Sequence record: PZ809289.1
DNA from: a phage
Strand: one strand, 5' to 3'
Length of the DNA stretch: 64,000 bases
The notes beneath the pieces are model-generated. The model ran no database searches and had not been told where the DNA came from. It worked only from the letters and a program-made list of their open reading frames with translations. The position numbers and the translations under genes were made by a program. This document shows, in pieces, positions 1,429-57,428 of this stretch. Within the stretch, counting starts at the first letter, position 1, and every line of letters starts with the position of its first letter.

Positions 1429-1455
1429 AGACCTATCAACTACAGGAGATTAAAA

Positions 1456-4425: not shown

Positions 4426-4453
4426 AAACCTATCAACTACAGGAGATTACAAA

Positions 4454-6469: not shown

Positions 6470-6651
6470 GTCTGAGTAAAGAACAGAAAGATAAATTGTT
6501 TGAGCTTATCCATGAACTTCTAGATGAGCATGCAGAAGCAAATTCTTTTTATGATGAATATGGCCCGCTATCTCCCGAACATCAGGAAGAATTTGTCAAT
6601 CGATTTGATGAGAAAGAAAACGAATTAATAGCTTATGTGAATACGCTTTAA
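6460..6651 (+). CDS. Hypothetical acidic protein (63 aa; alt starts 6445 TTG, 6466)
   Basis: RBS AAGGTG 5 nt upstream of ATG 6460. Confidence 0.45.
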   Translation: MVMSLSKEQKDKLFELIHELLDEHAEANSFYDEYGPLSPEHQEEFVNRFDEKENELIAYVNTL

Positions 6652-6660
6652 GAAGGTAAT

Positions 6661-7398
6661 ATGGCAAAGGAATTCCATTATAATTACTTGACTGTAATAA
6701 AAACCCATAAGGCAAATTATTACTATGTAGGTAAACACTCCACTGATAATCTTTCAGACGGGTATTATGGAAGTGGTACGGTAGTTAAAAATATTTGTAA
6801 AAAGCATCCTTATAAAACTCGTATATTAGAATTCTTCGAATCTGAAGAAGAGGCGTATGCCGCCGAAATTCCTTTAGTTGAAAAGGCTAAATTAAAATAT
6901 GGTAAGCATTCTTTAAATTTTGCTGATGGCGGAAGAGGTAAAAAGAAAGGAACCAAATTATCTAATTTAACTAAACAGAAAATGTCTAGGTCTAGAAAAG
7001 GAGTTAAATGGAGCAAAGCCAGAATAGAAGCTTCTAAATTCACCACTTCTAATAAAGGTTTAAACCATTATTCCAATAGAATAGGATTTAGTGATGAGCA
7101 TAAAGCTAAAATAGGATTAGCCTCTAAAAAATTAAAAGGATTTAAACATAGCGCTGAAACCATAGAAAATATGAGTAACGCCAAAAAGGGCAAAAAGAAT
7201 CCCATGTACGGTAAAAAGGGCGCTATGGCAGGAAAACCTTCTCCTATAAGAAACGAATCTTGGAAATTTTACGATGAATTAAAACTCTTATGGGAAGAAT
7301 CCAATAAGCCTTCAGCATATATGTTTAAAAAGATAGCTATAAGCAAAGGTTATCCTAATTGCTCTTATAGAGGAGTTGTATTTAAATGGCAAGCTTGA
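6661..7398 (+). CDS. GIY-YIG homing endonuclease (Seg-like) with NUMOD3-type repeats
   Basis: YNYLTVIKTHKANYYYVGKHS GIY-YIG core; repeated NPMYGKKG-type motifs; inserted just upstream of tk. Confidence 0.75.
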   Translation: MAKEFHYNYLTVIKTHKANYYYVGKHSTDNLSDGYYGSGTVVKNICKKHPYKTRILEFFESEEEAYAAEIPLVEKAKLKYGKHSLNFADGGRGKKKGTKLSNLTKQKMSRSRKGVKWSKARIEASKFTTSNKGLNHYSNRIGFSDEHKAKIGLASKKLKGFKHSAETIENMSNAKKGKKNPMYGKKGAMAGKPSPIRNESWKFYDELKLLWEESNKPSAYMFKKIAISKGYPNCSYRGVVFKWQA

Positions 7399-9000: not shown

Positions 9001-9005
9001 TCAAA

Positions 9006-9031
9006 GGTCTCACTTCGGTGGGACCTTTTTT
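9006..9031 (+). terminator. Rho-independent terminator (8-bp stem, UUCG tetraloop, U6)
   Basis: GGTCTCAC-TTCG-GTGGGACC followed by TTTTTT. Confidence 0.8.
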
Positions 9032-9040
9032 CGTTTAGGT

Positions 9041-9069
9041 GTTTACATCCTCTAGGAACATGATACTAT
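9041..9069 (+). promoter_or_regulatory. Early promoter (PeSL-like)
   Basis: GTTTAC 9041-9046, TG-extended TACTAT 9064-9069, CCTATCAAC box. Confidence 0.6.
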
Positions 9070-9097
9070 AGACCTATCAACTAATGAGGAGAACAGT

Positions 9098-11888: not shown

Positions 11889-12077
11889 ATGAAGGTCTTT
11901 TTATCATATGGAAGACCCCATAAAACCCGACGTTGGTATCTTGAAGCTGTCTGTAAAGAAACCGGACGTCGAGTCAATATCAAGTACGTGTGCAAACCTA
12001 CGCCTAAACAGACAAGACAATTTGTTAACTGGGCTATAAATGATATACGCTTCCATAATTTTTGGAGCGCAATTTAG
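11889..12077 (+). CDS. Hypothetical basic protein (62 aa)
   Basis: ORF between NTase gene and terminator; track start 11835 overlaps upstream gene. Confidence 0.4.
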   Translation: MKVFLSYGRPHKTRRWYLEAVCKETGRRVNIKYVCKPTPKQTRQFVNWAINDIRFHNFWSAI

Positions 12078-12098
12078 GAACCTTCGGGTTCCTTTTTT
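12077..12098 (+). terminator. Rho-independent terminator (GGAACC-UUCG-GGUUCC-U6)
   Basis: Perfect 6-bp stem, UUCG loop, T6. Confidence 0.8.
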
Positions 12099-12118
12099 GG
12101 GTTTAGTGCAAAAAAAGA

Positions 12119-12147
12119 GTTTACACCTTCGTAGAGCATGTTATTAT
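12119..12147 (+). promoter_or_regulatory. Early promoter (PeSL-like)
   Basis: GTTTAC 12119-12124, TATTAT 12142-12147, GACCTATCAA box. Confidence 0.55.
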
Positions 12148-12172
12148 GGACCTATCAAATCTACTGAGTGAA

Positions 12173-13547: not shown

Positions 13548-13573
13548 AGACCTATCAACTACTGGAGGTTAAC

Positions 13574-18385: not shown

Positions 18386-18415
18386 GTTTACAACGATTCC
18401 GAAATAGAGTATAAT
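18386..18415 (+). promoter_or_regulatory. Early promoter-like element (GTTTAC, 18 bp, TATAAT)
   Basis: GTTTAC 18386-18391, TATAAT 18410-18415. Confidence 0.5.
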
Positions 18416-20114: not shown

Positions 20115-20143
20115 CTATCCTATCAACACATGAGGAGAACATT

Positions 20144-34654: not shown

Positions 34655-34684
34655 CCTTCCTATCAACTACATGAGGAAATTACA

Positions 34685-41024: not shown

Positions 41025-41346
41025 TTTATCTGATTTAGATAATTTCGTTAAAGATACCGAAGAGGGTCCTAGTGACCCTCGTTATTATGAGAAATCATTA
41101 GATATAATCCGTAAGTCAATGGGTTCTGTTAAGCAGGAAATTATGCTTACTTTACCCGATGGCACTGCTCACATCGTTTATGTGATGAATATTGTTATTG
41201 AGAAAGATGGAAAAGTGTCGGTTGATTTCGGAACACCTTCCGAAGACCGAAAAGAAGAGCTGGCGCTTCATGTAGAAAAATGTGTTACAATGCAAATACA
41301 AGAAGAACTGGATAAAATTAAATCTAAGAGGTGGTGGAAGTGGTAG
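41017..41346 (+). CDS. 40: gp40 head-vertex assembly chaperone-like protein (109 aa)
   Basis: Position between uvsX and 41; overlaps both neighbours. Confidence 0.7.
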   Translation: MTDLSDLDNFVKDTEEGPSDPRYYEKSLDIIRKSMGSVKQEIMLTLPDGTAHIVYVMNIVIEKDGKVSVDFGTPSEDRKEELALHVEKCVTMQIQEELDKIKSKRWWKW

Positions 41347-42770: not shown

Positions 42771-42790
42771 GGAGCTTCGGCTCCTTTTTT
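42771..42790 (+). terminator. Rho-independent terminator (GGAGC-UUCG-GCUCC-U6)
   Basis: Immediately after gene 41 stop. Confidence 0.8.
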
Positions 42791-42800
42791 GTTTTTAAGG

Positions 42801-42829
42801 GTTTACATCTCCTGTAGGTGTGATACTAT
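42801..42829 (+). promoter_or_regulatory. Early promoter with stem-loop (PeSL-like)
   Basis: GTTTAC 42801-42806, TACTAT 42824-42829, GACCTATCAAC box. Confidence 0.6.
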
Positions 42830-42853
42830 AGACCTATCAACTTGGAGAACAAA

Positions 42854-43572: not shown

Positions 43573-43601
43573 GTTTACATCAAAGGGGTAATGTAGTATA
43601 T
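43573..43601 (+). promoter_or_regulatory. Early promoter variant with hairpin (PeSL-like)
   Basis: GTTTAC 43573-43578; 8-bp inverted repeat GGGGTAAT/ATTACCCC across the -10; CCTATCAAC box. Confidence 0.5.
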
Positions 43602-43630
43602 TACCCCTATCAACTACCGAGGAGAACATT

Positions 43631-53718: not shown

Positions 53719-53745
53719 CTACCCTATCAACATGAGGAGAACAAA

Positions 53746-55436: not shown

Positions 55437-55467
55437 AGTATACAACAGGGTAGTAGTGTGATACTAT
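55437..55467 (+). promoter_or_regulatory. Early promoter variant (PeSL-like)
   Basis: GTATAC at -35 position, TG-extended TACTAT 55462-55467, CCCTATCAAC box. Confidence 0.4.
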
Positions 55468-55497
55468 TACCCTATCAACAAATGAGAGGAAAATAAA

Positions 55498-56747: not shown

Positions 56748-57428
56748 ATGAAATATATAACATACTTAACAATATATGATGGAACAAAGCTACCTCCATT
56801 TTATATAGGCTCCACTTATTTGGATAAACACCTAGCTGGATATCATGGTTCGGTGACATCCAAAAAGTACGAAGACCTATATAATAAAGAGCTTGAGGAA
56901 CATCCTGAATTATTTGATAGCATGATTTTGGGTGAATTTGAAACCAGAGAAGAAGCTACATTTTGCGAGCTTTATTACCAAAAACTTTATAACGTGGTCA
57001 AAAGTAATTTATTTTTCAATATGGCATATGCTACCGTTGACGGATGTTTTGGTATGGATGTTTGTAAAGAAAATAATCCATTTTGGAACCATAAACATTC
57101 TGAAAGTACATTAAAAGCCCAATCTGATGCTAAGATTGGAGAGCTTAATCCTATGTACGGGACTAAACGCCCTGAGCATTCTAAAGCAATGTCAAAAGAA
57201 AATAATCCTTTTTATGATAAGAAACACACCGAAGAAGGATTGGTTAAGTGTGGAATTAAAAATCGTAAAAGTCCGGTATGGGAATATGAATCTGCTTTAG
57301 AAAAATTATGGTTAGAATTAGATAAACCTAAATTGGCTATGTTTATGCGAGAAAGTATTAAACGCGGTTTTCCTGAAGGTTCATACAAAAATATTTTACG
57401 ACAATTCGAGAGAAGACATAATGATTGA
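56748..57428 (+). CDS. GIY-YIG homing endonuclease (Seg-like), paralog of 23983
   Basis: MKYITYLTIYDGTKLPPFYIGSTYLDKH...; NUMOD3 repeats NPFWNHKHSE, NPMYGTKRPEHS, NPFYDKKHTEEG; directly upstream of gene 39. Confidence 0.75.
   Translation: MKYITYLTIYDGTKLPPFYIGSTYLDKHLAGYHGSVTSKKYEDLYNKELEEHPELFDSMILGEFETREEATFCELYYQKLYNVVKSNLFFNMAYATVDGCFGMDVCKENNPFWNHKHSESTLKAQSDAKIGELNPMYGTKRPEHSKAMSKENNPFYDKKHTEEGLVKCGIKNRKSPVWEYESALEKLWLELDKPKLAMFMRESIKRGFPEGSYKNILRQFERRHND

Follow-up and report, generated by a model that had tools for sequence, protein, structure and literature searches.

A conserved box at the predicted transcription start of early promoters in a relative of phage T4 extends the T4-type early-promoter consensus

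We analysed a stretch of 64,000 nucleotides of phage DNA (sequence record PZ809289.1, one strand, 5' to 3'; hereafter the window), in which a box of 9 nt, CCTATCAAC, recurs just downstream of the -10 hexamer of early-promoter-like cassettes. The initial annotation had noticed this box but did not recognise it as part of the T4 early-promoter consensus. The box is the downstream end of the known T4-type promoter consensus in a new T4 relative, and not a new class of element. With moderate confidence, we read it as the start-site and initial-transcribed segment of a T4-type early promoter, covering positions -3 to +6 and usually followed by TAC. It is found in clear excess, keeps its place next to the -10 hexamer, is identical to the T4 consensus, occurs in several genera including a phage of Acinetobacter, and is already conserved ahead of the predicted start.

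The window contains 10 exact copies of CCTATCAAC, all on the + strand (starting at 1432, 4429, 9073, 13551, 20119, 34659, 42833, 43606, 53723 and 55471), while dinucleotide shuffles gave a mean of 0.52 copies and a maximum of 3. Four more copies with one mismatch stand in the same promoter context, at 12151 (CCTATCAAA), 49615 and 1885 (both TCTATCAAC) and 50352 (CCTATCAGC), which brings the total to 14. The conserved box proposed by the initial annotation is thus confirmed, as are the 13 copies that it listed, those given at 12148, 49612 and 50349 being one-mismatch variants; the TCTATCAAC copy at 1885-1893 had been missed. A -10 hexamer precedes all 14 copies. The supposedly fixed distance between the two elements is nearly so, with 3 nt in 11 copies but 4 nt in the other 3. 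The box was also said to occur in most cassettes, which is correct: it is found at 14 of the approximately 21 window sites that fit the early-promoter pattern with a Shine-Dalgarno sequence and a start codon. A looser pattern, GACCTATCAAC with two mismatches allowed, was found 19 times in the window against 15 expected, i.e. not above chance. The signal is therefore the core of 8-9 nt together with its position, and not the looser pattern. The copies and the elements of the denV cassette, taken as the example, are as follows.

1400 to 1405, + strand: -35 element GTTTAC of the denV cassette (example copy), a T4-type -35 as in PMC1524935 and PMC4122927
1407 to 1417, + strand: 5' arm TCTCCTGTAGT of an inverted repeat of the denV cassette, in the promoter spacer and ahead of the start, from folding
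1420 to 1428, + strand: extended -10 TGA-TACTAT of the denV cassette, with TG before the second hexamer
1432 to 1440, + strand: box CCTATCAAC of the denV cassette; with a predicted start at A 1435, the box covers -3 to +6
1439 to 1449, + strand: 3' arm ACTACAGGAGA of the denV inverted repeat, overlapping the end of the box and the GGAG at 1445-1448, from folding
1456, + strand: ATG of denV
1885 to 1893, + strand: box variant TCTATCAAC behind ATTTAC-N17-TAGAAT, absent from the initial list
4429 to 4437, + strand: box of the regB cassette
9073 to 9081, + strand: box with an intrinsic terminator (9003-9028) just upstream
12151 to 12159, + strand: box variant CCTATCAAA of the nrdC.10 cassette, with a terminator (12076-12093) upstream
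13551 to 13559, + strand: box of the nrdC.8 cassette
20119 to 20127, + strand: box of the 55.6 cassette, 4 nt past the -10 TATAGT
34659 to 34667, + strand: box of the imm cassette, 4 nt past the -10 TAGTAT
42833 to 42841, + strand: box with a terminator-like hairpin (42771-42784) and a T-run upstream
43606 to 43614, + strand: box of the sp cassette, whose spacer GGGGTAAT (43585-43592) pairs with ATTACCCC (43600-43607)
49615 to 49623, + strand: box variant TCTATCAAC of a modA-like cassette
50352 to 50360, + strand: box variant CCTATCAGC of the srd cassette, whose leader is long (34 nt)
53723 to 53731, + strand: box of the motB.2 cassette, 4 nt past the -10
55471 to 55479, + strand: box of the cef cassette

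Judged on sequence, the box copies have all the features of T4 early promoters. The promoter sets used here, in the window and in its relatives, consist of sites defined by pattern. Each of the 14 copies has GTTTAC, ATTTAC or GTATAC as its -35, located 16-18 nt before the -10, and 13 of them carry an extended -10 of the form TG(A/G/T)TA(C/T)(T/A)AT with a spacer of 17 +/- 1. A generic sigma70 scan of the window returned 63 sites against 57 expected, which is no overall excess and only confirms the hexamers of the cassettes; it places a TG ahead of the second hexamer at 1401, 1853, 4398, 9042, 12120 and 13520. The 20 nt upstream of the -35 are modestly enriched in A+T (70% vs. 61% for the window), with frequent A-tracts. 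The copies lie upstream of, and in the same orientation as, the orthologues of denV, regB, nrdC.10, nrdC.8, 55.6, imm, sp, modA, srd, motB.2 and cef. Published T4 early promoters share with these cassettes the -35, the spacer length, the TGn, the -10 variants, the orientation and the T4 early-gene orthologues downstream, but the descriptions consulted end at the start site or mention only “additional regions of consensus” (PMC1524935, PMC2988021). The initial annotation also placed the box before gene 55 and uvsX. The match is partial there: the gene 55 site (TATAAT-AGACCTATG) agrees with the box only over CCTAT and the uvsX site (TATAAT-TACCCTATCTT) only over CCTATC, the position given for the latter (39815) being about 15 nt downstream of the actual partial match. 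Two intragenic early-promoter-like sites, at 18386 and 20790, have no box and are conserved in T4 (47452, and Pe40.4 at 41261).

We then built a consensus from sites anchored on the -10 hexamer only, with 21 sites from the window, 37 from T4, 20 from RB69 and Kimel, and a pool of 78. The majority base from -3 to +8 reads CCTATCAACTA in the window, in T4, in the pool, and in RB69 and Kimel (with A at +6). The frequencies of the consensus bases range from 0.5 to 0.95, and the information content is at background at -6 to -4 and at +9/+10. This agrees with the idea of the initial annotation that the box is an element beyond the sigma70 -35/-10 model, since it is conserved at the start and is the majority sequence from -3 to +8 in T4 sites as well. 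The same pattern scan of the T4 early regions gave 37-38 sites, with the box in at least 11 promoters, including those of denV, motA, imm.1, nrdC.8 and nrdC.10. The arrangement TACTAT-ACAA-CTATCAAC-TAC is found in T4 at imm.1, nrdC.8, nrdC.10, e.8, motA and the site 167086, and TACC-CTATCAAC at trna.4 and ndd.4; the T4 denV cassette is nearly identical to that of the window.

A search in the window and in related phages, which the initial annotation had put forward as a check, found the promoter-linked box again in T4 and in four other phages. The other genera were sampled around dda. The box is present in RB69 (Mosigvirus) and in VR7 (Gaprivervirus, -35 GTGTAC), TTATCAAC is present in the Klebsiella phage Roth17, and the Acinetobacter phage Kimel (Twarogvirinae) carries TATCA(A/G)(A/C) behind 7 of 10 promoters, with the extended -10 TG(A/G)TA in only 2 of the 10. 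In VR7, the early promoters at positions 7146, 7881 and 12323 of the sampled locus have GTGTAC in place of GTTTAC. Within the sampled set, only phages with GTTTAC/GTGTAC-type promoters carry the CCTATCAAC-type motif. Scanning IMG/VR for TACTAT-N4-CTATCAAC was uninformative about distribution: among the matches listed, most are single chance matches, and several copies occur only in contigs of about 170 kb, the size of T4. The candidate assignment to MotA boxes or middle promoters was rejected, as the box copies have GTTTAC at -35, where middle promoters carry instead (a/t)(a/t)TGCTT(t/c)a centred at -30; among 29 T4 middle promoters with mapped starts, CTATC stands at the start in only 2 and the full box in none.

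Part of this conservation can be recognised in the literature. T4 early promoters have been credited with “additional regions of consensus” beyond the UP element, -35, TGn and -10 (PMC2988021), and the logos of RB69, RB49 and 44RR, which end at the start site, favour C at -3 to -1 (PMC1524935). In the literature that we searched, which did not cover the primary T4 mapping papers, we found no description of the +1 to +9 part, ATCAACTAC, or of a frequency of 14 out of about 21 in a Dhakavirus. A search for the CTATCAAC motif returned unrelated papers only, and searches on T4 start mapping by RNA sequencing, on the T4 consensus and on RegB primer extension gave no 5' end for a box-type promoter.

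Where transcription would begin was deduced from T4. The names of T4 promoters put +1 at the 7th nucleotide past the -10 (Pe133295 for the site 133331, Pe40.4 = 41,225, Pe148.6 = 150,727). In addition, three mapped T4 middle-promoter starts of PMC2988021 (Table 1), located on the T4 sequence, fall on the A following CT: P55 reads TATAAT-AGATCT-A-TGAAT, Pa-gt.4 TAAACT-A-TCGG and PnrdC(1) ATGCT-A-TCAG. The gene 55 promoter of the window reads TATAAT-AGACCT-A-TGATT. From this spacing and these CT-A-T contexts, we infer that +1 is the A of CT-A-TC, and the box would therefore span -3 to +6 (CCT-A+1-TCAAC). The initial annotation saw in it a 5' leader at roughly +1 to +10. The box does sit at the transcript start, but it straddles the start and is not purely leader. 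As the T at -1 and the Cs at -3 and -2 would not be transcribed, part of the constraint would act on DNA. The predicted transcript begins with AUCAACUAC, which is free of G; in 13 of the 14 copies the G-free run from +1 covers 7-12 nt and reaches up to the Shine-Dalgarno sequence, whose onset is at +8 to +13 in 13 copies. The leaders, as called by the pattern search, measure 18-24 nt in 13 copies and 34 nt at srd. For the copy at 12151, the true start codon probably lies further downstream and the leader would be longer than called. The box keeps within 3-4 nt of the -10, while its distance to the ATG spans 18-34 nt in the window and exceeds this in T4 motA. The box is thus tied to the promoter rather than to the ribosome site.

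Our favoured explanation can be put as follows. In each cassette, an A/T-rich upstream region leads to GTTTAC; a spacer of 17 bp, TGn-TAYTAT and 3-4 nt then separate GTTTAC from CCTATCAAC, behind which come the Shine-Dalgarno sequence and the ATG. The unmodified host sigma70 RNA polymerase would start at the A of CT-A-TC, 7-8 nt past the -10, on a pyrimidine(-1)/purine(+1) step of the “CAT-like” kind, and would first make the G-free, A/C-rich AUCAACUAC. The start segment would be selected for efficient and precisely placed initiation, and for escape, at very strong promoters that fire immediately; it may act on start precision, open-complex stability and promoter escape. As the leader is very short, the box would also provide all of its unstructured 5' end. 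Comparable starts are known from T7 A1 (...CC-A-TCGAG) and lambda PL (...C-A-TCAGC), which represent the classical “CAT” start. They have the same pyrimidine at -1, A at +1 and transcript beginning with AUC, but are single promoters and not a conserved block of 9-12 nt in many copies.

Several points weigh against this explanation. The box is absent from about one third of the early promoters of the window and from about two thirds of those of T4, which are expected to be strong anyway. Orthologous promoters without it exist, namely srd, 55.6, sp and motB.2 in T4, and denV in other lineages. Not being universal, and with orthologues that function without it, the box cannot be a requirement of RNA polymerase. 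It was not found in an 18-kb sample of a Krischvirus nor in a 19-kb sample of KP15 (Slopekvirus), both of which have TTGACA-type promoters and use the same host polymerase. The -10 is TACTAT in 9 of the 14 box copies and in no box-less site, a linkage that would also fit the common descent of one cassette family, and it is partly supported that whole cassettes move, as described below.

Many cassettes contain inverted repeats spanning the promoter, with the 5' arm in the -35/-10 spacer and the 3' arm at the Shine-Dalgarno sequence. In the denV copy, TCTCCTGTAGT (1407-1417) pairs with ACTACAGGAGA (1439-1449), covering the end of the box and the GGAG; other pairs of arms are 4404-4413/4437-4446, 13526-13535/13559-13567, 20096-20103/20131-20138 and 53697-53706/53731-53740. 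As the 5' arm lies upstream of the start, these hairpins would form only in read-through RNA. We folded each cassette twice, once as RNA reading through from upstream and once as the transcript of its own promoter. In the window, the mean predicted fold was -14.7 kcal/mol for the read-through RNA vs. -1.3 kcal/mol for the own transcript, and the mean predicted probability of an unpaired Shine-Dalgarno sequence was 0.24 vs. 0.58, respectively. For five of the strongest hairpins (1400, 4397, 13519, 20086 and 53690), this probability was about 0 vs. 0.4-0.8, with z from -4.4 to -6.7 relative to shuffles of the spacer only. Among 58 distinct box cassettes from all sources, z was below -2 against spacer shuffles in 31, while 27 had no significant hairpin, and at least 75% of the Shine-Dalgarno sequence was paired to pre-start sequence in 29. 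Eight cassettes are in register; for these, a structure of 16 pairs, specified by hand and derived from the same sequences, was 95% paired, with four pairs changed on both sides (UA/AU, GC/CG, etc.). Its covariation score was reached by 0 of 500 shuffles, and slid controls collapsed. RNAalifold predicted no consensus structure for 17 cassettes, because the stems are in different registers. Moreover, the covariance models of Rfam 15, run on the whole window, gave no match at or above the gathering score.

The box itself is a partner in these folds. TATCA (1434-1438) is matched by its exact reverse complement, TGATA (1420-1424), 9-10 nt away, as also in other TGATACTAT copies; T4 has TGGTA, which allows a G.U pair in RNA, plus a second TGATAC downstream (ACTATCAACTACTGATAC). 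Being invariant, this inner helix gives no covariation evidence. The -35-to-TGn spacer, 13 nt beside the constant island, shows only background similarity among copies. Of the 58 cassettes, 27 pair TATCA with the extended -10, 12 with the spacer and 14 with downstream sequence, and 5 leave it unpaired; the spacer partners include ATAGGG(T) in T4 (73572), in Kimel (2934) and at one further locus (L032), and GTAGTTGAT in a T4 promoter near 6630. As partners change, and as Kimel keeps TATCA although few of its promoters have TG(A/G)TA, the box would be constant for a reason of its own, with the hairpins built around it. The variable spacers would have evolved to pair with the constant box or with the Shine-Dalgarno sequence, as a secondary use: read-through RNA would fold and hide the ribosome site, and transcripts started at the box would lack the 5' arm. 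Similar ribosome-site hairpins are known from the T4 genes e, soc, 49 and I-TevI, where read-through RNA also masks the Shine-Dalgarno sequence and internally started RNA lacks the 5' arm. There, however, a late promoter lies inside the hairpin, which silences early read-through, whereas the promoters here are early and sigma70-dependent, and the box makes up no more than the inner or loop-proximal portion of the 3' arm.

In the box cassettes preceded by a terminator or terminator-like hairpin (9003-9028, 12076-12093 and 42771-42784), the hairpins at the Shine-Dalgarno sequence are weak or absent. This suggests that a terminator and a masking hairpin are two alternative ways to insulate a gene from upstream transcription. 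T-runs also precede the promoters at 47115 and 59473. In every T4-like lineage, the approximately 60 nt upstream of denV hold an early promoter and a repeat predicted to pair with the Shine-Dalgarno sequence, with unrelated sequences and geometries, with or without the box, and with the 5' arm placed either within the spacer or between -6 and +1. This architecture is conserved without conservation of sequence. Homologues of denV with 52-55% identity are also found on contigs of 345-378 kb, i.e. of jumbo phages.

We also looked at the mobility of the cassettes. The cef promoter (55446-55478) is identical over 33 nt, spacer included, to the promoter at 146143 in T4 (NC_000866), which lies in the frd.2/frd.1 intergenic region, a position that is not orthologous to that of cef. 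Such an identity, which includes the variable spacer, indicates a transfer of the whole cassette between non-orthologous sites. In the window, T4, RB69 and VR7, a conserved srd leader (CGTCCGTAAGATGAGAAAAATAT, 50365-50387 of the window) stands behind promoter modules that differ upstream of about +10; this leader may be a regulatory element of srd. Upstream of denV, the version of the cassette differs between lineages, and the flanks of both srd and denV are conserved. Cassette shuffling has been proposed for PeSLs, units of an early promoter and a stem-loop (PMC2839356, PMC4122927), described in RB49/phi1, PST/T4 and nt-1/KVP40 (Arbiol 2010, Comeau 2014). Like the cassettes of the window, these are compact, combine an early promoter with a Shine-Dalgarno sequence and a start codon, stand before small early genes, recur at different loci and are tied to gene replacement; the occurrence of the same cassette at different loci, with replacement between relatives, was found here too. 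Combined units of terminator and promoter are found at 9003-9081, 12076-12159 and 42771-42841. The upstream stem-loop that defines PeSLs is thus present at only 3 of the 14 box copies and lacking at the other 11. In PeSLs this stem-loop stands just upstream of the promoter and is a terminator, whereas here the inverted repeat mostly spans the promoter, and published accounts of PeSLs do not single out a start-site box.

These data bear on several other explanations, among which selection on the RNA comes closest, although we regard it as rather unlikely. The common 5' end AUCAACUAC would then be selected for binding of 30S/S1 or for a stability that depends on the 5' end. With the Shine-Dalgarno sequence at +8 to +13 and leaders of 18-24 nt, the box is essentially all of the 5' untranslated region ahead of the Shine-Dalgarno sequence; the G-free run and the better predicted access to the Shine-Dalgarno sequence in the own transcript fit this idea, and a small 5'-terminal hairpin between AUCA and a UGAU 5 nt further on can form in the T4 subfamily. 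However, conservation begins before the start (C-3, C-2, T-1), and the distance to the Shine-Dalgarno sequence and ATG is variable, being long at srd and longer still in T4 motA, nrdC.10 and e.8. It is more doubtful that TATCA(AC) is kept as a structural complement, to pair with the extended -10 TG(A/G)TA and the adjacent spacer as the inner part of a hairpin. The reverse complementarity, kept through a wobble pair in T4, the minimum-free-energy folds that pair the box with the extended -10 in nearly half of the cassettes and the compensatory changes in the outer stem speak for it, as do the T4 promoters with TGTTA, which have TAACA downstream (123093 and 136336). Against it stand the invariance of the inner helix, which leaves it without covariation support, the cassettes with a spacer-encoded partner, an unpaired box or no significant hairpin (z above -2), the Kimel promoters, in which TATCA is far more frequent than TG(A/G)TA, and the frequent presence of TG(A/G)TA in T4 promoters that lack the box. 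The initial annotation had further suggested a recombination core, an idea that is partly supported at the level of the whole cassette (the non-orthologous cef/T4 copy, the swapped srd promoters, the varying denV versions, the terminator-promoter units and the literature on shuffling). That recombination or gene conversion within mobile PeSL-like cassettes keeps the box uniform, with the box as crossover point, appears quite improbable, because gene conversion should homogenise contiguous tracts, which leaves unexplained a constant island of 9-12 nt beside a free 13-nt spacer of background identity. In addition, the motif persists in Twarogvirinae, whose exchange with coliphages is implausible, and few copies have the defining upstream stem-loop.

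A role of the box beyond that of a start site also has a small probability. Taken together, two proposals of this kind are improbable: that the box, as DNA from -3 to +6 or as a 5'-terminal AUCAAC, is the recognition element by which early expression is switched off minutes after infection, or, in a milder variant, that the box and its co-varying spacers form a gate embedded in the promoter, so that translation would proceed only from the promoter's own transcripts. If this variant were true, the switch-off of the promoter would also end translation despite persisting read-through RNA. A binding site for a phage or host protein at the start, such as an early shut-off factor, or on the 5' end of early mRNAs, is very unlikely; a site for a phage factor had been among the suggestions of the initial annotation. 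A location overlapping +1 would be ideal for a repressor, the mechanism of early-promoter shut-off is not understood according to reviews (PMC2988021, PMC3014915), and the motif is confined to GTTTAC/GTGTAC-type phages in our sample. However, many early promoters are shut off without a box, and the box has no symmetry and lies either 3 or 4 nt from the -10. Its sole dyad, tried as a dimeric operator (TGATA-N9-TATCA), was rejected: the spacing is 9 or 10, T4 has the imperfect TGGTA, and Kimel lacks the left half. IHF (WATCAA-N4-TTR) and the DnaA box (TTATNCACA) were rejected as well, as the matches, judged by eye, are partial (the WATCAA half for IHF, 7 of 9 positions for DnaA) and the copies differ at the flanking positions of the consensus. 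A NAD-cap promoter consensus and primer-dependent (UpA) initiation at T-1/A+1 were considered as further candidates. As for the RNA processing signal evoked by the initial annotation, a site for RegB or another endoribonuclease can practically be discarded. The box does lie 4-8 nt upstream of a GGAG Shine-Dalgarno sequence, the target of RegB in T4, and regB is encoded in the window, but RegB with S1 needs sequence 3' of GGAG and no specific 5' information, so that this candidate was rejected on published evidence (PMC1702504). The lack of Rfam matches also counts against an endoribonuclease signal.

From its translated open reading frames, the window is collinear, in reverse complement, with the part of the T4 genome that runs from gene e (about 66.7 kb) through coordinate 1 to rIIB. 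The order is ipIII, denV, regB, tk, nrdC.x, 49, 55, 47, 46, 45, 44, 43, imm, uvsX and 41, then sp, 61, 56, soc, modA/B, srd, dda, dexA, motB, cef, 39, rIIA and rIIB, all on the + strand. The coliphages WG01, QL01, MX01 and their relatives share about 95-97% identity with the first 6 kb of the window, and Escherichia phage C6 (Dhakavirus, Tevenvirinae) has a Dda helicase with 100% identity to the one encoded at 51436-52764. By these similarities, the window is assigned to a T4-like Dhakavirus, nearest to phage C6, and covers an early/middle gene region. Weak similarity to homing-endonuclease regions of T4 marks two open reading frames as probable insertions of mobile endonucleases: a segA-like one at 6661-7398 (29% identity), which separates the tk.x genes from tk, and a mobD-like one at 56748-57428 (32%), ahead of gene 39.

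For now, what has been found adds to a known consensus and reveals no new mechanism. T4 early promoters are a textbook case of out-competing the host for RNA polymerase, and the start-proximal CCT-A-TCAAC-TAC, fixed while its surroundings evolve, is the commonest form across several T-even genera and in a relative infecting Acinetobacter. The box defines a precise target for mutagenesis of start-site choice and promoter escape, and helps to annotate early promoters. The predicted masking of the ribosome site, in many cassettes, in read-through RNA only may matter more, as it concerns how early expression is insulated and terminated.

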